In this document: positions 18,842-60,238 of the stretch, in pieces
How positions within the stretch are numbered: the stretch's first letter is position 1
How the letters are laid out: every line of letters starts with the position of its first letter
Assembly: GCA_026396275.1 (NCBI GenBank)
Contig: JAPLXC010000007.1
Span: forward strand, 37,084 to 101,083
Source: Candidatus Moraniibacteriota bacterium
Lineage (GTDB): Bacteria > Patescibacteriota > Minisyncoccia > Moranbacterales > JAPLXC01
DNA length: 64,000 nucleotides
Direction: 5' to 3'
Notes under the pieces: model-generated
Database searches by the model: none
Told to the model about the DNA's origin: nothing
What the model saw: only the letters and a program-made list of their open reading frames with translations
Translations under genes and position numbers: made by a program

Positions 18842-19423
18842 TTACCCCAAAACAACTTTCAACAGTTCCGGAAATTCTTCTGTTCCCATATCACCCAATG
18901 TATAATGCCCCTTACTCTTAAGCTCAATTATTTTGCCATCTAAAACCTTATGGTAAATTTGAAGGCTTTTTTTGCCATCCTCTTCCTCGTCATCAGCGGT
19001 AAACATGATAATCTCTCCAATCCTATCTTTAATTTTCTCGTCTATTGGATAGACATAGAAAGCTTCCCTAAATTTATCGCCCGCGTCAGGAATTTTCCAG
19101 GGAGCTACCAGTATTAATTTTCTTATTTTCTGTCTTGTTTCACCCAGCCAGCGCACCAAAAAAGCACATCCGCAACTATGTCCAATTAAAATCGTATTTT
19201 CCGTAACTTCATATTTTTCAAATTCTTTTTTGAATTTTTCATAATCCGGCGCCCAGGGTTCAGGCAAAAGCGGAGTTTCTGTCTTTATTCCTTTGGCAAT
19301 TAATTTTTCCTTAATCCACGGAATCCAATGTTTGTCATATGTCCGCGTCTGCGGATCCATTGCTTTCTCTTTGTCCGAGGGACACCCATGAATTATTATG
19401 CAATTTATTTGTGACTGATCCAT
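18842..19423 (-). CDS. alpha/beta hydrolase, YdeN/RBBP9-like serine hydrolase family
   Basis: IIIHGCPS ... LIGHSCGC nucleophile elbow, about 190 aa typical of the family. Confidence 0.6.
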   Translation of the reverse strand: MDQSQINCIIIHGCPSDKEKAMDPQTRTYDKHWIPWIKEKLIAKGIKTETPLLPEPWAPDYEKFKKEFEKYEVTENTILIGHSCGCAFLVRWLGETRQKIRKLILVAPWKIPDAGDKFREAFYVYPIDEKIKDRIGEIIMFTADDEEEDGKKSLQIYHKVLDGKIIELKSKGHYTLGDMGTEEFPELLKVVLG

Positions 19424-20062: not shown

Positions 20063-20434
20063 CTAATTTATCACGCCTCTGCAATTTTTACTGCCGCATT
20101 TGCATTTAAAAGAAACCAAACTACCTTTTCCGTAATCAGAAGTTATTTCCTCACCTTTCTTAATGTCTCTAACGGCGACATCGCAATAGTTTTTTACTCG
20201 CGTGTTTGGTTCGCAAGAATGATTAACAAATTTTTCAGGCGATTGCATTAATAAATATTTATTCCTTCCGGCTTTATAAATATAATGTCTTTGGCCATTT
20301 CTTAACTTTTCAATTTCTGATTTTCCCAAAAATTTTGGGGTCCACTTTAAAACAATTTCGCCTTTCTTGAAATTTCTTGCGGCAAATACACCTTTCTTTT
20401 CGATTTTCGACTTTTTTACTATTATGTTTTTCAT
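20063..20434 (-). CDS. SET domain protein (putative protein lysine methyltransferase)
   Basis: FVNHSCEPNT, GEEITSDYG and post-SET CKCGSKNCRG cysteine cluster. Confidence 0.8.
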   Translation of the reverse strand: MKNIIVKKSKIEKKGVFAARNFKKGEIVLKWTPKFLGKSEIEKLRNGQRHYIYKAGRNKYLLMQSPEKFVNHSCEPNTRVKNYCDVAVRDIKKGEEITSDYGKGSLVSFKCKCGSKNCRGVIN

Positions 20435-21704: not shown

Positions 21705-22556
21705 TCATAGATTATTTTGCCTTACAATTTCATCGATTCTAGCCTTACTTTTTTTTCTTGTTTCATTTATTTCTTCTTCAAGCTTTTTCATTTCAATAGA
21801 TATTTCATTAGTTAAATTATGAGGATATTTAGCCGCTGCTATCAAATGAACGATTTTAGTAAAAATCGGCTTTTCTTTCATTAATATCCTAGTTTTTACA
21901 ACAATCTTTTTATTTTCACTTTCAAGATCTTCCAAGAAAACTTTTAGCTCTGCTACTTTTTTTATTAAAATCTCAATGTTTATTTTATAAGTTTCAAAAT
22001 CAATATGTTTTTGAATAAATGCTTTTTTTATTTCGCTATAAAATCTATTCGTAGAATTAATCGATCCATTCATTTTATCTACGCTTGTTTCAAAAGAAAA
22101 AACTTCGTTGACTAAATCTAAATTCATTAGATCTACGGATATTTCTTCGTCTAAAGCAAATTCATGTAGAACATTAAAATAAACAAATGGCCTGTTATAT
22201 TCTATTGCGTCTTGGGCAATATTAATGAAATCATCAATTATAAAGATGTTGTCGGAGATGACATTCAAATATCGATTGCAAATTCTTTCAATCTTTACAA
22301 GGGCATTGTAATGCTTAACTTGTCTATCATAAATTCTGGTGAGTGCATCTGCAAGTCTTATAAACAAGAAAGCGAAAAACGCCCCCATGAAAGCACTTAT
22401 TGCGCTGTTGATATATCTGATGTCATTAGAAATGAAGATTTTATTAAAAATAAAAAATCCAAAAACAAATATAAATGAACAAATTAAAGTTAAAAGCAAA
22501 AGTGGATATGTTTTTTTAATACATTCTCTTAATTTTTTTGTTGGCCAGTTATTCAT
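21705..22556 (-). CDS. hypothetical membrane protein with cytoplasmic coiled-coil domain
   Basis: Two N-terminal TM helices then long helical/coiled-coil region; very AT-rich; start overlaps stop of RusA-like gene. Confidence 0.5.
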   Translation of the reverse strand: MNNWPTKKLRECIKKTYPLLLLTLICSFIFVFGFFIFNKIFISNDIRYINSAISAFMGAFFAFLFIRLADALTRIYDRQVKHYNALVKIERICNRYLNVISDNIFIIDDFINIAQDAIEYNRPFVYFNVLHEFALDEEISVDLMNLDLVNEVFSFETSVDKMNGSINSTNRFYSEIKKAFIQKHIDFETYKINIEILIKKVAELKVFLEDLESENKKIVVKTRILMKEKPIFTKIVHLIAAAKYPHNLTNEISIEMKKLEEEINETRKKSKARIDEIVRQNNL

Positions 22557-22557
22557 T

Positions 22558-23022
22558 TTATATCAACCTACTAATCTGCGAGGATATTCTTTTAATGATC
22601 TCTTCGTCCAGTATTTTAACAGATATACGAAAAAAACTTTCTTGTGAATTTATTATAAATGCTTTGTGAGTCCAGAGCATTTTAACTTGGGAGTCATCAA
22701 AATAAACAACCCCTTTAAGTGCATCTAGTATACATTTTGCGCGATTATCTAAATCACATTTTTTATATTCAGTACCTGAATTTATACCATGCACTATTGA
22801 GACAAGGACATTTTTATCTGTTGGAAAAATATTTACATTTTTTAATTCTTTTTTAAGATCTTCTTTTAATTCATTCTCGAATTTATGGGTACTAGCTTTT
22901 TCAATCACAATATTCTTTTCTATTTCACCGTCATACTTATAAGCTATGCTTTTAGATGGTACCAAAGTGTTACCTTGAAGATATACTATTTCTGGATTGA
23001 TAATTTCTTTAAGCTTTCTCAT
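22558..23022 (-). CDS. RusA-family crossover junction endodeoxyribonuclease (Holliday junction resolvase)
   Basis: KKCDLDNRAKCILDALKGVVYFDDSQV matches the RusA catalytic core (D-L-D-N ... LDAL ... DD); start set at internal ATG that overlaps upstream stop (aaaTGAtATG). Confidence 0.7.
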   Translation of the reverse strand: MRKLKEIINPEIVYLQGNTLVPSKSIAYKYDGEIEKNIVIEKASTHKFENELKEDLKKELKNVNIFPTDKNVLVSIVHGINSGTEYKKCDLDNRAKCILDALKGVVYFDDSQVKMLWTHKAFIINSQESFFRISVKILDEEIIKRISSQISRLI

Positions 23023-23023
23023 A

Positions 23024-23191
23024 TCATTTTTTCTTTTTCGCCAAAAATTCAACTCTCACGGATTTTGGAATAAATTTTTTTGCTCTAAAACTTACCTCCT
23101 CGCCCTTTCTAGTATAAAAAATAACTTTTACAGGTTTAGAAACTATCTTAGTCGCTTTAAACGAAATATGTTGTCTTGCTTGTTTTGGCAT
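23024..23191 (-). CDS. small basic protein (55 aa) translationally coupled to RusA-like gene
   Basis: MPKQARQHISFKATKIVSKPVKVIFYTRKGEEVSFRAKKF...; stop 1 nt before RusA ATG. Confidence 0.35.
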   Translation of the reverse strand: MPKQARQHISFKATKIVSKPVKVIFYTRKGEEVSFRAKKFIPKSVRVEFLAKKKK

Positions 23192-23528: not shown

Positions 23529-24002
23529 TTAGATTGATAAAACTAACAGTACGACACCTGCAATTAGAAAAATAATTGAAAATTTAAACCACAGAGCAAG
23601 TTCTGAAGATATTTTTTCATTATTAGTGATATCTGTTTCTAATTTTTTATTGAATTTCATTACTAATTTTTCATGAGGCCACTCGAAGCTTTTTTCTATT
23701 AGTTCTTTTAATTTTGGTCCTTGACTATATTTTTTTGACCAAATTGAACAAACAGCAAACAACAAAGAGACAGCAACTAGAAAAAAAGATTTTTTTTGAA
23801 AGCCACTAAGACATGAACTCTTACTGATTAGAAATCCCAATAAAGCAACATCTGCCACAATAATCCAATTAAGCTTATTATTAAGATAATCTATGGCTTT
23901 TTGTTGGCTATTGGAAAATTCTACAATTTTTTCATGAACAAAAAGTGTCTTGTGTAGATCGTCTTTGCTATTATTCTCTTTTTCTTCATTGTTATCCACC
24001 AT
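23529..24002 (-). CDS. hypothetical membrane protein
   Basis: 157 aa, hydrophilic N-terminus then 3-4 TM helices; AT-rich. Confidence 0.5.
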   Translation of the reverse strand: MVDNNEEKENNSKDDLHKTLFVHEKIVEFSNSQQKAIDYLNNKLNWIIVADVALLGFLISKSSCLSGFQKKSFFLVAVSLLFAVCSIWSKKYSQGPKLKELIEKSFEWPHEKLVMKFNKKLETDITNNEKISSELALWFKFSIIFLIAGVVLLVLSI

Positions 24003-24341
24003 ATTCGTTATTCTTTAAATTTAATCTATTGGCAGTCAGCGCTTATATTTCAAAATTTTAATAACTTTTTGAATCGTCTTTTCCAGATTTTTTTGAATTT
24101 CATGCTCCCGCCGCTGAATTTTCCGCCTGATATACTAATTACAGGCAGGCTGTAAATTTTGCGATAGCAATAAATACAGCCTGGTTGGGATTTATTGAGA
24201 GTGGAATACTGTACAAACCCCGGCGAGGATGATTGAAAGTTTTTTAAAATAAACGCGGGCGAAATTTGGGTTTTTTGGATTATGTAACATATGTAATTTT
24301 TCCATCAAAGTTGTATTTTTAATTTCTCTCTCTCATAATTT

Positions 24342-25622
24342 TTAATAGTCAATGTAAAACTTAGTTATTCCGAACCCCTTGTCGTCATCAAACATACCAA
24401 ACTCCCATGGATGTGATGGGTATACCTGTATATTGTTATCTTTTCGTTCAATAAATTTAAAATCACGGGGTGACTGCATGAGAAAATCTTTCTCTTCGCC
24501 GCCTGATGTAAATTGCCTTTCATAAATCGAAAGGGCATTGCACAACATTGCAAAAAGAAATGAACAGAAAATATTACCTCTCGTAATAACTCCCCTCTCT
24601 TTAAAATCATTAAAATATTTCCTGTCTGACTTATTATCAATTTTGAAATACTTTGCTGCCTCTATGCACAATGTAACTCGGAAATCCGGCTCAAGCCCAT
24701 CATCTACCTGATTTTTGTATATAAGATCGGCTTTCCTGATTATTAACTTCAAAAGTCGCATATTTGTCTCCACTCTTTCTACAAACAATCCTTCAAGAAA
24801 ACTAATTATTTGACTCTTTCTGTTTGCACCGGTCCAAACCAATTTATTATTATCCTGTCTATTGAATGAGCCTGTGAATAAATTATTACGAAAAATTTCA
24901 TCAACGAATTTATCAAGCTTTACCTTTTCAGGTTGAAAAAAGTCGAAATAATCAATGCACTTTAAATACGACTCTAAATTTTTATAGTAGTTCTCATTGG
25001 CTATAGGAACAATAACCACAAACTTTTTCTTAAAGCTGTAGGAGTGCAAAAATTGTTTCAATGTTTCCAGAAAAAACACACCCGCATCTCCTGACCTATC
25101 TATATCTTCAACAATAATAAACAGATTGCTATCAGCTTTTTCTACCTGCTCTTTTAAAATTTTCTGTATCTCATCAACTCTTCTTGCTGGAGACGTTTCG
25201 AAAAAATGATTTATGCCTTCAAGAACTGCAAATCCTGGTATTCTAGAAATAGTTTTAATTAATGTTTTTTTATCCTCATTTTGTGTTCCCTGAATTTTTT
25301 TCTCTGTTTCTGCAAAATCTTTCGGACTTATTTCCTTTGAAAAATCTAAAATAAACCCCTCCCACAAATCTTTCCTGTCTGGATATTTCCAAGCATCAAA
25401 CTCTATCCACTTTTCACCGCTTCCTCGCTCGTTCATAACTCGATTTATCATAGTGCTTTTCCCGCTTCCAAAGGGCCCAACCAAAGCAATGATTGAGGAA
25501 GTGGGAAGGGAATCTATTTTCTTAGCAAAACTGGCAACAATGTCAGAAAAACCTAGTAGATCATTGACCTTGCTATGTTCTTTTAATAATTCGTGATTTT
25601 TTACGAAACCTTGATTAGCCAT
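24342..25622 (-). CDS. KAP family P-loop NTPase
   Basis: LVGPFGSGKSTMINRV Walker A, WKYP, LFIIVEDIDRSGD Walker B-like; 426 aa; candidate sigma70 promoter TTGCAA-17-TAATAT about 35 nt upstream. Confidence 0.7.
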   Translation of the reverse strand: MANQGFVKNHELLKEHSKVNDLLGFSDIVASFAKKIDSLPTSSIIALVGPFGSGKSTMINRVMNERGSGEKWIEFDAWKYPDRKDLWEGFILDFSKEISPKDFAETEKKIQGTQNEDKKTLIKTISRIPGFAVLEGINHFFETSPARRVDEIQKILKEQVEKADSNLFIIVEDIDRSGDAGVFFLETLKQFLHSYSFKKKFVVIVPIANENYYKNLESYLKCIDYFDFFQPEKVKLDKFVDEIFRNNLFTGSFNRQDNNKLVWTGANRKSQIISFLEGLFVERVETNMRLLKLIIRKADLIYKNQVDDGLEPDFRVTLCIEAAKYFKIDNKSDRKYFNDFKERGVITRGNIFCSFLFAMLCNALSIYERQFTSGGEEKDFLMQSPRDFKFIERKDNNIQVYPSHPWEFGMFDDDKGFGITKFYIDY

Positions 25623-25745
25623 ATGATTCTATTAAACTCCCATCTCTCCGCTCATTAACTTTGGCAAAAGCAAATTGCAGAGAAATCATATCTTATATTA
25701 ATATCCACAGGGCATATTTGCAAGTATGGTATAATTAATTTAGGA

Positions 25746-25788
25746 AGAGGGCGAATATCTATCTTTTGGATAAAATATTCGCCCCTCT
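25746..25788 (-). terminator. strong hairpin terminator (13-bp perfect stem) downstream of 25790..26107
   Basis: agagggcgaatat ctatcttttggataaa atattcgcccctct. Confidence 0.55.
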
Positions 25789-25789
25789 T

Positions 25790-26107
25790 TTACTTAATCC
25801 CGCATGGGGGATTCTTCTTATTTCGGATGTCTTTTTCAATCTTCAATCGATCTTCTAGAGAATACTTATCGGTTGGCATCCATTTAACTGCGACAGAATA
25901 ACCACCGTGTTTATCCCAACATGGTTTTCTTTCATGTGTCAGCAACCTCGTTCCCGTTTCACCGGATTGTCCAACATCAATAACTGAGTATATCACATTG
26001 AGGATTACGTAAATTGCAGCTCTATCAATCTTAATCTTACCAATTTTATAAGGTCCATCGAAATTATAACCTGCGATTGTAACCATTGGACTTAATTTTC
26101 TAGCCAA
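25790..26107 (-). CDS. hypothetical protein, possible GIY-YIG-like nuclease fold
   Basis: AAIYVILNVIYSVIDVGQSGETGTRLLTHE resembles GIY...YIG...R..H pattern; weak. Confidence 0.35.
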   Translation of the reverse strand: MARKLSPMVTIAGYNFDGPYKIGKIKIDRAAIYVILNVIYSVIDVGQSGETGTRLLTHERKPCWDKHGGYSVAVKWMPTDKYSLEDRLKIEKDIRNKKNPPCGIK

Positions 26108-26238
26108 CTTTTCGGCTGGATTAATAATTATTTAAACCTTAGGGAAATACCGACCTATTTCCCATAGGCACCTGTGGATAACTTGACCTTGTTTAGGTTT
26201 TCTTTAGGTATTATAATATAAGTAGTAAAAAAGTCAAT

Positions 26239-27771
26239 ATGATCTCAAAAAGATTATCAAAAAAACAAAAGGAAGTTCTTGATTTTATTACCGCTTTTCA
26301 ACAAAAGCGCGAGTATTCCCCTTCCCTAGAAGAAATCGCTAAACATTTCAATATTGCAATTCCCACTGCTCACCAACATGTGCAGGTATTAAAAAGAAAA
26401 GGATTTATAAGCGCAAGAAAGGGGGAAAAACGATCTATCTCAGTAAAAGAAAAAGCTTCAATGGTACAAGTCCCGCTGCTTGGTGTTATTACTGCTGGCC
26501 AGCCGATTGAAGCGATAGAAAATAAAGAGACAATTGCTGTACCACAAAATAAACTCTCCCATTCCGGAGAATTTTATGCTTTACGAGTTTTGGGCAATAG
26601 CATGATTGATGAAAATATAAAAGACGGCGATATTGTTTTAGTAAAAAAACAAGAAGTTGCAGAAAATGGACAAAAAGTCGTTGCTTTAATTGATAACTAT
26701 GAAGCAACACTGAAAAAATTTTATAAGGAAAGAGGACACATTCGGTTGCAACCAGCTAATAAGAACATTGAACCAATAATTATAAAAAGGGATAGAGAAC
26801 TAACTATTCAGGGCATTGTAATAGATGTAATTAAAAATGAAGAGGAATTGCAAGCGGAAGAAATTTTAACTGCAGGAAAGGTTAAAAGACACTTAAAACT
26901 TCCTCTTAATAAAATTATTTTAGGAGACGCTGTTAGAGAATTAAGAAAATTACCGGATGAAAGTTGCGATATTATTATTATCGACCCGCCTTATAATATC
27001 GGAAAGGATTTCGGAAATAATATTGATAAAAGAGAATTAAGCGAATATATTGAATGGAGCAAAAAATGGATTAATGAATCTATAAGAGTAATGAAATCAA
27101 CTGGTACAATGTTTATTTACGGATTTAGTGAAATTTTAGCGTACTTGTCAGTTGAAATTCCTATAAATAAGCGATGGCTCATTTGGCACTATACTAACAA
27201 AAATGTTGCATCTTTAAATTTTTGGCAAAGAAGCCACGAAGCAATTATTTGCGCCTGGAAAGAAAAACCAATTTTCAACCGGGACGAAGTGAGAGAGCCA
27301 TATACTGAAGGATTTCTAAACGGCGCCGCTGGAAAAGTACGTAAAGGAACTATGGGAAGATTCAGCCGAGGTGGACAAGAAACTGTTTATAATGCACACG
27401 AAGGTGGCGCGTTACCAAGAGACGTTATAAAAATACCCGCTCTAGCAGGAGGAGCGGGAATGGTTGAAAGGTGGTTTTTATGCAAAACATGCAATGACGT
27501 TTTTGAGCCACGTGAATTAAAAAAACACCAAAATCATGAGATTATAAAACATCCGACACAAAAACCCTTGGAACTTTCAAAAAAACTTATAAAATCAGCC
27601 TCCTCAAGCAAAGAAGGCGTTATTTTGGTACCATTCGTCGGCAGCGGTTCAGAATGCGTCGCAGCCAAAGAACTTGGTAAAAATTATCTTGGTTTTGAAT
27701 TAAACCCAGATTATGTAAAGTTGGCCGAAGAGTGGTTAAAATCTACAAAGACTGCTCCTAAGTTATTTTAA
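26239..27771 (+). CDS. LexA-like repressor (wHTH + S24 peptidase) fused to N6/N4 DNA methyltransferase (beta class, DPPY then FxGxG)
   Basis: N-term: KQKEVLDFI...VPLLGVITAGQP (Ala-Gly site), GNSM catalytic Ser, VVALIDNYEATLKKF catalytic Lys; C-term: IIIDPPYNIGKDF (motif IV) and VPFVGSGSECVAAKELGKNYLGFEL (motif I). Confidence 0.85.
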   Translation: MISKRLSKKQKEVLDFITAFQQKREYSPSLEEIAKHFNIAIPTAHQHVQVLKRKGFISARKGEKRSISVKEKASMVQVPLLGVITAGQPIEAIENKETIAVPQNKLSHSGEFYALRVLGNSMIDENIKDGDIVLVKKQEVAENGQKVVALIDNYEATLKKFYKERGHIRLQPANKNIEPIIIKRDRELTIQGIVIDVIKNEEELQAEEILTAGKVKRHLKLPLNKIILGDAVRELRKLPDESCDIIIIDPPYNIGKDFGNNIDKRELSEYIEWSKKWINESIRVMKSTGTMFIYGFSEILAYLSVEIPINKRWLIWHYTNKNVASLNFWQRSHEAIICAWKEKPIFNRDEVREPYTEGFLNGAAGKVRKGTMGRFSRGGQETVYNAHEGGALPRDVIKIPALAGGAGMVERWFLCKTCNDVFEPRELKKHQNHEIIKHPTQKPLELSKKLIKSASSSKEGVILVPFVGSGSECVAAKELGKNYLGFELNPDYVKLAEEWLKSTKTAPKLF

Positions 27772-28470
27772 TTTTGAATCAATTTCTTCTTTCTTTTGTT
27801 CAAAAATGTAGGGCTCAAAAATAACAAAGCCATTCGAGAATACACGAAGCATTTTTGTGTCTAGATAGTTTTTCTTAAAAGTAAGATATGATTTTAAAAA
27901 TCCCGTCCCTCTTTTCTTTTTAGGATGCAAAATGGTTTTAAGATCAGGTACTTCATAGCGGATTGGAATTGTTATGCCCGGAATCGGCTCTTTCGGCTTA
28001 TGACTACGCCCCATTACACCACTATTTGATTTCTTCTTTACATCATAATTAATAACTAATTCCCTATATTGTACCTGAATGTCAGCCCCTTTATGATCAA
28101 GTTCCTCTGACATATTGACCGTATTTTTTCCAAATACTGACTCGGCAACATATCCTGCATGCATTTGAGTAATAAGCCCTGCCCATGTCCTATATATACG
28201 CGCCTCGATTCCTTTCTTAAAACAACTAGGACACATCCCAATTTTCTTTCGAAACTCGCTGAGTTTTTTTCTATTTTCCCTTCTATAAATATCATAGAAG
28301 GCGTTAAAATCAACAAAGTTCTTTTCATCCCAGTAAATTCGATATAACAGCTTAATAGCTTGAATATTCTTTGGCAGATTCATTTCCACTATTTTAATAG
28401 AACTATACTTTTCTCTGTAAGCACTTAGGTTAACTGTTTTCAAAAAATCACTAAATTTTTGTAGATACAT
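27763..28470 (-). CDS. putative restriction endonuclease partner (PD-(D/E)xK-like), convergent and overlapping with methyltransferase gene
   Basis: GADIQVQYRELVINYDVKKK fits D-x(n)-D-x-K; convergent 9-nt overlap with MTase 3' end as in many type II RM pairs; assignment is inferential. Confidence 0.4.
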   Translation of the reverse strand: MYLQKFSDFLKTVNLSAYREKYSSIKIVEMNLPKNIQAIKLLYRIYWDEKNFVDFNAFYDIYRRENRKKLSEFRKKIGMCPSCFKKGIEARIYRTWAGLITQMHAGYVAESVFGKNTVNMSEELDHKGADIQVQYRELVINYDVKKKSNSGVMGRSHKPKEPIPGITIPIRYEVPDLKTILHPKKKRGTGFLKSYLTFKKNYLDTKMLRVFSNGFVIFEPYIFEQKKEEIDSKLK

Positions 28471-28514: not shown

Positions 28515-29108
28515 TTACAAATTTTTGATTTCCTCTACGATTTCCGGGAAGTGTTCTTGGTTGAAATGCTGGCGGTCTTCAAAAATATGCGCTTTAACAC
28601 TTGGTAAATCTTTCTTATATCTTTCAACTTCATTAAAAGGCACAATTGGATCATCCTTGCTTTGATACAAATGAATTATTGGGCATTGCTTTTCAACTCC
28701 TTCGAGCGATTTTTTAAAAACAAAATCACTAATCTCATGGGTTTCTGAATGTGGCGGAGCTACCAAAAAAAGAGCTTTTATTTTTTTAGGAAATTCGTTT
28801 TCAGATAAATATTTAACCAGAAAGATGCCTCCTTGCGAATGTCCGATTAAAATCGGTTCACTTTCCATAAATGGAAACATTCTTTTAAACCATATTTTCC
28901 ATTCCTCATACCTGGCATTATTTGAATTGGGCATACGGGGCGCAAGCACTTGGAATTCTCCTCCCAATTCCGATTGCAGGTGAATTTTCCAATCTTTTTT
29001 GGGCAGAAATGATTCAATCGTTACTTCCTGATTTTTAAGATCATCCAAAAATTTTTTGTACGAATCAAACGAACTTCCGCCATGTATAATAATAACTTGT
29101 TGTTTCAT
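28515..29108 (-). CDS. alpha/beta hydrolase, YdeN/RBBP9-like (second, divergent paralog)
   Basis: VIIIHGGSS ... LIGHSQGG. Confidence 0.6.
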   Translation of the reverse strand: MKQQVIIIHGGSSFDSYKKFLDDLKNQEVTIESFLPKKDWKIHLQSELGGEFQVLAPRMPNSNNARYEEWKIWFKRMFPFMESEPILIGHSQGGIFLVKYLSENEFPKKIKALFLVAPPHSETHEISDFVFKKSLEGVEKQCPIIHLYQSKDDPIVPFNEVERYKKDLPSVKAHIFEDRQHFNQEHFPEIVEEIKNL

Positions 29109-29926: not shown

Positions 29927-31105
29927 TTATTTTTCAAACAATTTTAAGTATCCAGAAAACACAAATAACCGGTTTCTTTTAAATCCGGTGATTTCTTTAA
30001 AAATCCCGATCTTTTCAAATTGTTTGACCAGCGTGCTTGCTGAAGGATGAGTTATTTGTAATCTTTTAGCTATCTGTTTAGTGTTTAAGATGGGCTGAGA
30101 ATACAAATGTTTCAGCAGTTCTTGTCCTATTTTTGCTCTTTTACCAAGAGACATAATTTTTTGTTCGGATTGATGTCTAAGAGCAATAATTTTTTCAAAC
30201 GTCAATTTGCCGTTTTTTGCCGTTTCCGCAACACCAACCAAAAAAAACTTGATCCAGTGTTCCAAGTCATTTGAAGTTCTCACAACGGTAAGCGCATCGT
30301 AATAAGCACCTTTGTTTCTTTCAAAGAAATCCGATAAATATAGCGTTGGTTTTGAGAGAATCCTCTGTGACACAAGATAGAGAGTAATAAGTAATCGGCC
30401 AATGCGACCATTGCCATCTAAAAATGGATGTATGGTTTCAAATTGATAATGACTAATAGCAATCTTAATCAGGTGAGGCATATCAATTTTCTTATTATGC
30501 CAAAACTTTTCTAAGTCGCTAAGCAAATACGGCATTTCATTGGGATGCGGCGGAATGAATACGGCGTCTTTCAATGTTGCGCCGCCAATCCAGTTTTGAC
30601 TGGTGCGTATTTCTCCGGAATCTTTATGTTTGCCGCGAACACCAGTTAATAAAATCTTATGAGTATCTTTAAGAAGTCGCATTGAAAGCGGAAGTTTTTC
30701 TAATTCAGCAATTGCATAATCCATTGCCTTTGTATAATTTTGAACTTCTGCCCAATCATCTCTTCTTTCGGGATTGATTTCTTCTTTAGGTAAAAGCGCC
30801 TCATCCATTCCCGTTTTAGTCCCTTCAATTCTACTGGACGTTGTTGCCTCTTTGAAAACATGCATGCGGATAAAAAAATCCACATCAGGCACAAGTAAAG
30901 AATAAGCATTCAATTCTCCCAGGTATCGTGTCGCTTCTTCAAGCAATACGTCAATCTTAGGGTCCAACCATTTAAAAGCCACATTGATCAGAGACGGGGA
31001 AAAACTTTTATATTCATATTGCTGTTTATATACGCCTGACTTAAATGTTGTATTTTTCATAATAATTGACTTTACATAAGAATATTTATATTTAAAGTTT
31101 AGCAC
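29927..31105 (-). CDS. Fic family protein (Fic/DOC domain with C-terminal winged helix)
   Basis: [14 protein letters not shown] Fic motif. Confidence 0.85.
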
Positions 31106-31344
31106 CTAACTTTACATATGTCAATTCATGTTAAAAGTTGGATTGTGGATAAAAGCGGGCAACCGCCTGCCTGCCCGCTTCGCAGTGAGGCGACCAGGCC
31201 TCGTAAAATTGACACCATAACGGGGTAAACAATCCATATCAGACGCTATATTATCCGGTAAAATCACGTGTTCAAAATACCAAACTATATCACCTAGTAA
31301 TTGCGGGTAATTACGAATTTTATGACGCCTTCTTTACGAATCTA

Positions 31345-43606: not shown

Positions 43607-43623
43607 AAAATATCTTCAGGATG

Positions 43624-43695
43624 AGCGAGTGATGGGAGTCGAACCCACGTCTTCAGCTTGGAAAGCTGACATAATAGCCGTTATACTACACTCGC
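43624..43695 (-). tRNA. tRNA-Gly (anticodon UCC)
   Basis: 7-bp acceptor GCGAGTG/CACTCGC, anticodon stem TCAGC/GCTGA with loop TTTCCAA, T-arm GTGGGTTCGACTCCCAT. Confidence 0.85.
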
Positions 43696-44282: not shown

Positions 44283-44681
44283 GGGGTTGTCTAGCTTCGA
44301 CATTTTGCACTTTAAAAAATTTGCAAACCGATTATGACAGTCATATCGTTAAACTGCCTGTCAAAATTATAAGTGCAAACTTATACTCAAAAGTAAAGGC
44401 CAGCATCGCGCAAGCGTTTGCTCCGGCTTTTGCTACCGCTTTGGCTTAATTTAAGCTTTAGCCATCGGACTATTGACTCCTTATAAATAGCAACCGGTGC
44501 CAACCATAAGGATAGCCCGCCTGATATTTTCTAAGTTAAGCGGGCAAAATTAAATTAGAAATAGATTAAAAAGATTTTGCTTGTTTATTACTTTTTAGTC
44601 AAAATAAATAAACCGGCTAAGTTTGTAGAAAATTTTTTAAAAGCAACAATGGACGCGAGTGCAATTCTCGCCAACTCCACC
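44283..44681 (+). ncRNA. ssrA: putative tmRNA (SsrA), ~399 nt, tag ORF ...AQAFAPAFATALA*
   Basis: 5' GGGGTTGtctagCTTCGAC resembles tmRNA 5' acceptor/D-loop; 3' GGACGCGAGtgcaattCTCGCcaactccACC = T-arm + complementary acceptor strand (one G-U) + ACC; in-frame gcg caa gcg ttt gct ccg gct ttt gct acc gct ttg gct taa at 44408..44449; adjacent to smpB. Confidence 0.65.
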
Positions 44682-44682
44682 T

Positions 44683-59386: not shown

Positions 59387-60238
59387 TTATACCATATTTT
59401 TCCTCCTTAACAAAAAGGTAGCTGTGGATAAAATAATTAGCGCTATTGATAATATTTGCCCCAGCGTAAGCCAATTATTTGCCAAAATTGCTCCTTTCTC
59501 CGGCTCGCGGAAAAATTCTATAAAAAATCTAAAAAAACCGTAGCCGAAAAGATATAACATAAAGCATGGAACATGGAACACTTTATTTTTATATTTTATT
59601 CCATTTCTCAATGCCCAAAGAATGGCAAACAGCACTATTCCCTCCAGAAATGCTTCATAAAGTTGCGAAGGGTGGCGCAGCAGTCCCAGTCCATCAGCCG
59701 GAAAGTACATTCCCCACGGCAGATTTGTCGGCACGCCATAGAGCTCGCCGTTTAAGAAATTTCCTATCCGACCGAAAAAGTAGCCGGCGGGAACGGCGGG
59801 AATGACAAAATCGGCCAGCTGCCAAAAATTAAGATTATTTCTTTTGGCGAACACAAGGCCGGCAATTATCACTCCGACAAGCCCGCCAAAGTAGCTCATT
59901 CCGTAAAAACCGGTATACTCAAAGCCCGCAATCTGCAATCCGTAACCCTCTATGCTAAACGGCAAAAAAATTTCCAAAGGATGTTGAAGATAATACGGCA
60001 AACCATAAAAAATAACATAGCCCAGCCGCGCGCCAATAAGTAATCCTATAATCAAATAAATCATTAAATCCGGAATGGAAATTTTATTTGGCGACTCTTT
60101 TATTCTATATTTAAGTAATAAATACACTGTCAGGAAACCCGCTAAATACATAATTGAGTACCACTTAACAGAAAAAGATCCGATTGAAAAAACAATCGGA
60201 TTGATGTGTTCAGGAATATGTTGATACCATTCAAGCAT
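59387..60238 (-). CDS. lgt: prolipoprotein diacylglyceryl transferase
   Basis: GRIGNFLNGELYG signature, multi-TM. Confidence 0.85.
   Translation of the reverse strand: MLEWYQHIPEHINPIVFSIGSFSVKWYSIMYLAGFLTVYLLLKYRIKESPNKISIPDLMIYLIIGLLIGARLGYVIFYGLPYYLQHPLEIFLPFSIEGYGLQIAGFEYTGFYGMSYFGGLVGVIIAGLVFAKRNNLNFWQLADFVIPAVPAGYFFGRIGNFLNGELYGVPTNLPWGMYFPADGLGLLRHPSQLYEAFLEGIVLFAILWALRNGIKYKNKVFHVPCFMLYLFGYGFFRFFIEFFREPEKGAILANNWLTLGQILSIALIILSTATFLLRRKNMV

Follow-up and report, generated by a model that had tools for sequence, protein, structure and literature searches.

The stretch of DNA analyzed here, referred to as the window, comprises 64,000 nucleotides of contig JAPLXC010000007.1 (positions 37,084 to 101,083, forward strand; assembly GCA_026396275.1) from Candidatus Moraniibacteriota bacterium, and we explored the nature and origin of an ATPase gene that it carries. 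A first-pass annotation, made from the letters alone, had described this gene as a stand-alone KAP-family P-loop NTPase with its own promoter inside an island. We found that the gene belongs to a clade residing in Type I restriction-modification (R-M) operons and that, judged by its leader sequence, such an operon was also the origin of the window copy, now an orphan. The protein is an exact match (P0001) to an NCBI 'P-loop NTPase fold protein' from a Candidatus Moranbacteria metagenome-assembled genome. The gene and the features that define it are as follows.

24342..25622, minus strand: KAP-like P-loop ATPase gene (426-aa open reading frame (ORF) with an ATG start; Pfam match and AlphaFold2 model)
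25452..25478, minus strand: Walker A motif GPFGSGKST, aa 49–57 (G49, G52, G54, K55, S56 and T57 invariant in 40 homologues)
25374..25397, minus strand: DAWKYPDR motif, aa 76–83, after the second strand of the ATPase core (A77, W78, K79, P81 and R83 invariant)
25086..25121, minus strand: Walker B motif FIIVEDIDRSGD, aa 168–179 (E172, D173, D175, R176 and S177 invariant)
24345..24941, minus strand: family-specific C-terminal module, aa 228–426, made of lid-like helices and an alpha/beta domain (AlphaFold2, profile search)
25629..25685, minus strand: relic of a Type I hsdS 3' end (FLCNLLLPKLMSGEMGV followed by two stops), aligned with intact hsdS tails

The Pfam family KAP_NTPase (PF07693) matched the ATPase with an E-value of 3.3e-10 and 40.2 bits against a cut-off of 20 bits, residues 26–219 being aligned to profile positions 2–202 of 293, which bears out the family assignment of the first-pass annotation. 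Every other P-loop Pfam family scored below PF07693 on this protein, NCBIfam gave sub-threshold P-loop matches only, and a precomputed PF07693 match is present in most of the 120 homologues listed. Conservation was judged in an alignment of 40 homologues, the window protein included. The GxxGSGKS, WKYP and acidic Walker B motifs named in the annotation are all present and invariant or nearly so, the Walker A GPFGSGKST and the Walker B core IIVEDID (aa 169–175) among them. The ATPase bears all 37 invariant positions of the alignment (trivially, as it is one of the 40 sequences), at the 33 nearly invariant positions it has the residues that are listed, and its start and stop align with those of the homologues. 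Because every alignment-invariant position is kept, the window ATPase is, on sequence grounds, probably functional.

No transmembrane (TM) segment was detected in the ATPase: the highest Kyte-Doolittle 19-residue mean was 1.53 and lay in the C-terminal half, and at the KAP insert position the hydropathy did not exceed 1.5 in any of the 40 homologues. At the site of the KAP membrane insert, between Walker A and Walker B, the AlphaFold2 model of the full protein (pLDDT 88.8, pTM 0.83) has soluble helices together with one low-confidence, mildly hydrophobic, disordered loop at aa 125–139. The annotation was thus right that the TM insertion is missing, but this lack is not unusual, since PifA, the prototype prokaryotic KAP, likewise has no TM helices (PMC13001434). 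Foldseek with the full model returned Orc1/Cdc6 and ORC subunits as the best PDB matches (E-values of 7e-7 to 1e-4, TM-scores of 0.32–0.46), the match covering the ATPase core and the lid with a large root-mean-square deviation (rmsd).

The C-terminal module ends in an invariant F-Y-x-x-Y-COOH and, when modelled alone by AlphaFold2, gave a pLDDT of 94.3 and a pTM of 0.90. Its conserved residues are mainly basic and aromatic (R289, K292, R296, R315, K324, R393 and P402-S-x-P-W); K221, P312, Y423 and Y426 are further conserved residues of the C-terminal part. Foldseek with the module alone found no PDB match (best E-value 3.5), no winged-helix match and no match among the BFVD viral predicted structures (best E-value 1.5), and sequence searches found neither a PDB nor a Pfam match. 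A PD-(D/E)xK nuclease formed by P312-D313...E321-x-x-K324 was considered and rejected, as the model makes these residues helical and no restriction-endonuclease fold came up in Foldseek. A profile of the module searched against 1.84 billion representative proteins retrieved only 159 clusters, so the module is family-specific and not shuffled among architectures. The full-length profile matches (~400–440 aa) hold it at about aa 230–425, and the shorter ones look like fragments. A word-indexed search gave 253 related proteins, the great majority of those listed being 400–460 aa long and aligning end to end with the ATPase, down to 37% identity. These results showed that the window gene encodes an intact, soluble KAP-type P-loop ATPase with an ORC/Cdc6-like core and lid and a family-specific C-terminal module.

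Genome matches came mostly from Patescibacteria/Candidate Phyla Radiation (CPR) lineages, with some from Zixibacteria, Bacteroidota and others. No ATPase homologue was found in 50,697 phage records, and 72,556 plasmids yielded one weak match, on an archaeal plasmid; with PHROG matches that were weak only, a phage or plasmid origin of the gene was rejected.

Sixteen distinct loci have the ATPase gene embedded in a Type I R-M operon, where the same strand carries hsdS before it, hsdR after it, or both. The members embedded in this way are 36–72% identical to the window protein and fall in the following loci.

Embedded loci, first group: L001, L004, L012, L014, L016, L031, L059 and L061
Embedded loci, second group: L064, L065, L069, L073, L074, L076, L077 and L085

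The gene order in these native operons is hsdM-(cargo)-hsdS-ATPase-hsdR, the ATPase gene usually being located between hsdS and hsdR. Extra genes embedded in the L059, L012, L014, L016 and L004 operons encode an SLFN/AlbA_2 ATPase, RhuM, a HEPN-like protein and an AAA_15/AAA_21 ATPase, and the same CPR Type I operons also hold a 269-aa protein without a known family, as well as DUF4268 and Mrr after hsdR. The gaps to hsdS and hsdR range from an overlap of a few bases to about 16 nt (exceptions are 73 nt in L016, 116 nt in L073 and a looser arrangement in L076), and such short gaps and overlaps suggest that the ATPase is co-translated with the hsd genes in most embedded loci. hsdR was seen in 13 of the 16 loci, each time downstream of the ATPase gene on the same strand; the gap between the two is at most ~15 nt in 11 of these 13, all except L073 and L076, and the arrangement holds over 36–64% identity. 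Other cargo genes shift position between operons, and the ATPase gene keeps its place before hsdR. The closest non-identical homologue, P0002 (72% identity), is encoded in L061 by a gene that overlaps the end of hsdS by 4 nt. A check of phylogenetic neighbours and co-occurring genes had been proposed with the first-pass annotation, and in a neighbour-joining tree the window protein came out as sister to this embedded protein, nested inside a clade that is embedded almost throughout. The data showed that the gene of this clade is natively the fourth gene of Type I R-M operons. In the literature searched we found no account of KAP-type genes located within Type I operons.

The window copy retains a trace of this arrangement. 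The 57 nt directly before the ATPase ATG translate to a peptide ending in LLLPKLMSGEMGV and two stops, which is the conserved HsdS C-terminus and corresponds to the last 17 hsdS codons. The relic aligns, also at the DNA level, with the intact ends of hsdS adjoining the family member in L012, L059 and L061 (intact HsdS proteins end in RDLLLPKLMNGEMEI in L012 and in RDLLLPKLMSEEINL in L059, each followed by a stop), and it sits at the same position relative to the start codon as the hsdS ends in embedded loci. The six-frame translation of the 64-kb window contains the motif L[LI]P[KQ]L[MV][STNA][GE] a single time, and none of 200 shuffles contains it. The relic now forms the 5' leader of the ATPase gene and holds a purine-rich stretch that serves as the ribosome-binding region in embedded homologues; the survival of the relic may be due to this stretch.

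A second orphan, L062 (58% identical), carries a similar relic ending in FLIPQLVAVKRELK and a stop, has a Fic gene in place of hsdR and retains an intact ATPase. The embedded L061 branches between the window and L062 orphans, so at least two losses of the hsd genes have left the ATPase in place. No hsd genes were found in the 64-kb window, and neither sensitive tblastn nor blastn detected an hsdR relic downstream (23990–24360). Since the window copy nests in the embedded clade and retains an hsdS tail as its leader, its sequence identifies it as an orphan of a Type I R-M operon whose hsd genes are gone, and its solitary state as secondary. A hairpin and a promoter-like element now set the gene apart from those around it, and to that extent the stand-alone unit of the first-pass annotation holds; standing alone is not its primary nature, as the operons of its clade and the 17-codon hsdS relic show.

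The two flanking elements lie between the ATPase gene and an upstream 105-aa ORF.

25745..25790, minus strand: hairpin between the 105-aa ORF and the ATPase gene (dG -22.2 kcal/mol, z -4.34, 0/200 shuffles as stable)
25695..25723, minus strand: promoter-like element TTGCAA(25723–25718)-17-TAATAT(25700–25695), matching 8/12 sigma-70 consensus positions

The hairpin, which the annotation had called a strong terminator, is real, but it is located upstream of the ATPase gene, directly after the stop of the 105-aa ORF; it has a bulge, no T-run comes after it, and it is absent from the output of the terminator scan. Although it has no U-tract, it could be the terminator of the upstream 105-aa ORF. 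A repeated-element reading was rejected, as the hairpin arm does not recur elsewhere in the window. The promoter proposed in the same annotation is present as a sequence but is weak. A better promoter match (TTGACT-16-TATAAT, 11/12) is found at 26237–26210 upstream of the 105-aa ORF, and transcription from it may read through into the ATPase gene. Downstream of the ATPase gene no significant structure was detected (z -0.1). As there is no downstream terminator and the next same-strand gene starts 339 bp away, the independent expression suggested earlier cannot be shown. That next gene, at 23529–24002 (minus strand), encodes a 157-aa membrane protein with about three hydrophobic segments by eye and no Pfam or PHROG match, and it may be co-transcribed with the ATPase gene.

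The ATPase gene is situated in a low-GC stretch (0.29–0.37 versus about 0.42–0.47) flanked by core genes, recA and ftsK on one side and rpoC and rpoB on the other; this variable region is rich in defence-type genes, so the annotation had correctly placed the gene inside an island. Two genes away from the ATPase gene lies a Type II R-M pair.

26239..27771, plus strand: fusion of a LexA DNA-binding domain, an S24 peptidase and an N6/N4 DNA methyltransferase (Pfam)
27763..28470, minus strand: TaqI-like restriction endonuclease (Pfam RE_TaqI, E-value 3.6e-36), convergent with the methyltransferase gene and overlapping it by 9 bp

The LexA-methyltransferase fusion is very common in CPR bacteria, its best 120 matches all being full-length with 72–79% identity, and the TaqI-like gene is paired with it in every locus examined (L130–L136). 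Many relatives of the fusion are annotated just as 'LexA', and the AG, GNSM and LKKF cleavage/catalytic motifs look intact by eye. The flank divergent from the LexA-methyltransferase gene varies between genomes.

L134–L136, 2721–3908: ThsB_TIR and 8xMP
L132, 2178–3649: Abi_alpha
L130, 2814–3914: genes without a known family
Window (25790–26238 flank) and L122 (3224–3808): ATPase family member

L122 is independent of the window case: there, a different LexA-methyltransferase fusion lies 290 bp from a family member that is 52% identical to the window ATPase. The divergent flank looks like a cargo slot, or hot spot, for defence genes.

The ATPase and methyltransferase genes also have a short sequence in common. 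The 10-mer TATCCACAGG occurs exactly twice in the window, at 25702–25711 (plus strand) and 26171–26180, against a chance expectation of ~0.1 for an exact 10-mer; one copy lies in the spacer of the ATPase promoter-like element and the other in the divergent promoter region of the LexA-methyltransferase gene. In its extended form, CCTGTGGATA[A/T], the element spans 25701–25711 and 26171–26181, and its complement contains the DnaA-box consensus TTATCCACA. Further perfect copies of TTATCCACA are found at 31144–31152, 39 nt upstream of the Fic gene of the window, and at 59423–59431, 75 nt upstream of a 931-aa ORF. In other genomes, LexA-methyltransferase genes are preceded by CCTGTGGATA[A] in L122 (3245–3254) and L132 (3919–3930), while the element takes the form TTGTGGATAA in L134 and is degenerate in L130; altogether it was found in four of five distinct upstream regions. 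Its use as a general SOS box was rejected, the core 7-mer being absent upstream of recA and uvrA. The shared sequence suggests that the ATPase and methyltransferase genes have a regulator in common, and the element may be an operator of the LexA-like domain, a DnaA box or a promoter element. Beside the TTATCCACA element, a perfect inverted repeat, GGGAAATA-N6-TATTTCCC, is located at 26142–26163 between the LexA-methyltransferase gene and the 105-aa ORF.

A conserved partner among the window neighbours was rejected, as the 105-aa, 157-aa TM, RusA-like and 283-aa proteins have no homologues in 136 related loci. The RusA-like resolvase gene (22558–23052, minus strand) is followed after a 1-bp gap by the gene of the 283-aa protein (21705–22556, minus strand), which by eye appears to have two N-terminal membrane helices and a long coiled coil. 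The low-GC stretch further holds, at 20063–20434, 18842–19423 and 28515–29108 (all minus strand), genes for a SET-domain protein and two paralogous Ser_hydrolase (alpha/beta hydrolase) proteins. Rfam and tRNA searches of the window found no RNA gene near the ATPase gene; their sole matches, tRNA-Gly(TCC) at 43623–43695 (minus strand) and tmRNA at 44283–44682 (plus strand), are not adjacent to the variable region.

Outside the embedded clade the surroundings of the gene vary, and relatives of the ATPase, some embedded ones included, are also found near other defence-type genes. SduA_C (Shedu-type) nuclease genes adjoin family members in L010 (4562–5998, directly upstream), L031 (842–1915) and L052 (7969–9174), the order in L031 being hsdS - SduA_C-like - ATPase - hsdR. 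DUF4268 is found near family members in L030, L016 and L059, together with RecQ in L030, and the L008 member is surrounded by methylases, a serine recombinase and a reverse transcriptase. Fic genes lie near family members in L004, L028, L057/58, L062 and L124. Those in L004, L028, L057/58 and L124 belong to a single Fic_N-Fic-HTH subfamily that is 51–63% identical to the Fic of the window. The Fic genes concerned are listed below.

29927..31105, minus strand: Fic/DOC gene in the window (Pfam; tblastn identity of 61–63% to the Fic genes in L004 and L028)
L004, 10529–11686: Fic gene of the subfamily
L028, 4196–5323: Fic gene of the subfamily
L058, 399–1544: Fic gene of the subfamily
L124, 493–1644: Fic gene of the subfamily

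The same Fic subfamily adjoins KAP-family genes in bacterial loci and in Methanobrevibacter contigs, the linkage of Fic and ATPase being recurrent and independent of hsd.

Comparison with known systems brought PrrC/RloC and the single-gene KAPs closest. The PrrC gene is placed between hsdS and hsdR. PrrC combines an NTPase with an effector; it is genetically linked to an hsd locus, and the Type I enzyme keeps it silent until a phage inhibits that enzyme (PMC1484252). As in PrrC/RloC, where a gene of ~400 aa is linked to Type I hsd genes (PMC1484252), the ATPase clade is tied to such genes in its 16 embedded loci, although of the hsd genes only the hsdS relic is left beside the window copy. The two groups also resemble each other in having an N-terminal P-loop NTPase joined to a distinct C-terminal module and in a sporadic distribution with relatives that lack R-M genes, and a back-up that stays silent while the restriction enzyme is intact is proposed as a further likeness. 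They differ in that the window NTPase is KAP/ORC-like whereas that of PrrC/RloC is ABC-type, and in that the ATPase lacks the Arg-Glu-His nuclease triad and has a C-terminal fold unrelated to known ones. There was no PADLOC PrrC match and no Pfam AAA_13 match among the matches listed, which cover 25 of 27 Pfam families. With neither a model match nor the Arg-Glu-His triad, homology to PrrC was rejected.

Phage protection has recently been shown for KAP NTPases fused to C-terminal regions without an assigned function, and it requires both Walker B and the C-terminal region (PMC13552941). With PifA of the F plasmid and with the EF_KAP of Enterococcus and the metagenomic KAPs of PMC13552941, the window ATPase shares a Pfam KAP_NTPase core fused to such a C-terminal region, and a defence-island or mobile-element setting. 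In contrast to EF_KAP, which has TM helices, the window ATPase has none, and at 426 aa it is much shorter than the 720-position PifA model. The PADLOC matches cover the N-terminal part only: PifA at an E-value of 2.3e-10 over profile positions 14–193 of 720, PDC-S20 over positions 17–192 of 464, and QatA over positions 14–74 of 593 (ATPase residues 25–81). As these matches are partial (~160–190 residues for PifA and PDC-S20), the ATPase is not a member of any of the three. QatA and Tmn/YobI resemble the ATPase as defence-system P-loop NTPases with weak model matches around Walker A; no qatBCD neighbours were found, however, and YobI-ATPase (PF20693) reached 18 bits against a cut-off of 27, over residues 43–74 only, and the two TM helices that the Tmn/YobI family has inside its P-loop domain are absent, so the ATPase is no member of that family either. 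We thus place the window ATPase in a TM-less KAP-like subfamily that has a private C-terminal module and Type I R-M linkage, the window copy being secondarily solitary.

We consider an R-M-coupled defence role with retained autonomous activity to be the best account of the gene and give it a probability of about 0.6; the intact ATPase core and unique C-terminal module, the native place of the clade in Type I operons, the orphan origin of the window copy and the recurrence of the family beside nuclease and defence genes are much more certain than this. In such a role the ATPase would be a switch that is driven by ATP and cooperates with restriction nucleases. Within the native operon it would probably be made together with the Type I enzyme and associate with it. 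By analogy with PrrC, blocked or engaged restriction could then set it off as a second-line device or bring it into action as a helper, its C-terminal module being the putative sensing or effector part. The orphan copy would probably keep a defence activity independent of R-M, driven by the new promoter-like element, which shares TATCCACAGG with the promoter region of the adjacent methyltransferase.

Several observations weigh against this role. The tie of the ATPase to HsdR or to the methylase is one of genetic linkage only, and because many unrelated genes are embedded in these Type I operons, the co-location might be hitch-hiking. Most distant members (< ~45% identity) are not adjacent to R-M genes, and some occur in conjugative-element contexts of the order HTH_3-ATPase-TraG-like (L037 and L039). 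No recognisable effector or nuclease fold was found in the C-terminal half, where the alignment of 40 sequences also contains no conserved histidine. The promoter-like element falls below the listing threshold of the promoter scan, and the 10-mer shared with the methyltransferase contains the DnaA-box consensus, which leaves several meanings. Moreover, the window represents 64 kb of a 121.7-kb contig, and an hsd operon could lie elsewhere in the genome.

Some of these observations fit an autonomous single-gene abortive-infection or defence protein of the PifA/EF_KAP kind, one that senses a phage product and whose proximity to R-M genes reflects the clustering of defence genes. We regard this, the main rival reading, as possible but doubtful. 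Many family members are not adjacent to R-M genes, the window and L062 orphans stay intact, and the SLFN/AlbA_2, RhuM, HEPN-like and AAA_15/21 genes show that Type I operons carry other, unrelated cargo. Single-gene KAPs with C-terminal regions of no assigned function do defend against phage (PMC13552941), and PADLOC gave weak matches to PifA and to the single-gene candidate PDC-S20. However, clustering does not readily account for the fixed place before hsdR in 13 of the 16 embedded loci, which persists over 36–64% identity while other cargo varies, and the PifA, PDC-S20 and QatA models reach no further than the N-terminal ATPase part.

A more ambitious form of the R-M-coupled role would make the protein an undescribed restriction-enzyme 'guard': a KAP/ORC-like ATPase with a new effector fold that rides with Type I complexes, is wired here to the LexA-methyltransferase Type II system by a shared operator, and mounts a second-line response once restriction has been disabled or overloaded by a phage, as an independently evolved analogue of PrrC concentrated in CPR bacteria. 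Taken as a whole, we hold this to be tentative and rather unlikely.

It is very unlikely that the gene encodes an ORC/Cdc6-like DNA-binding ATPase for replication initiation, partition or DNA transfer of a mobile element and has no part in defence. Orc1/Cdc6 and ORC subunits are its best structural matches, over the ATPase core and the lid of the predicted model, and both the window ATPase and Orc1/Cdc6 would be ATP-dependent switch proteins; distant members lie between HTH_3 and TraG/VirD4-like coupling-protein genes (L037 and L039), the L008 member is beside a serine recombinase and a reverse transcriptase, and the promoter-like region holds a DnaA-box-like element. Yet the TM-scores of 0.32–0.46 are low, the rmsd is large and the match is mainly to the ATPase core, which Pfam assigns to KAP; the orc1/cdc6 model TIGR02928 reached only an E-value of 0.13, and the C-terminal module alone gave neither a winged-helix nor any other match. 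No integrase, relaxase or replication genes lie near the window copy, and the lack of phage homologues together with the single weak plasmid match likewise speaks against a mobile-element function. Least probable of all is a decaying leftover of the lost Type I operon with no present function: the hsd genes are gone except for the hsdS stub and the promoter-like element is weak, but the ORF is full length with every alignment-invariant residue, its start and stop align with those of homologues, its predicted fold is confident, and the second, independent orphan L062 is intact as well.

These findings bear on defence biology in several ways. A short leader sequence can reveal the source operon of an apparently solitary defence gene. 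The joining of an R-M methylase to an SOS-type repressor domain, as in the neighbouring LexA-methyltransferase, looks worth separate study. Phage defence by KAP NTPases is a recent finding, and the ATPase family offers a small, soluble and tractable entry to their mechanism; its structure is predicted with confidence, and the Type I enzyme is its defined genetic partner. If the link to restriction is functional, this would be a second, unrelated NTPase family in hsd operons beside PrrC, which would suggest that restriction-enzyme guarding is a recurring strategy and would broaden the so far scant knowledge of defence in CPR bacteria.

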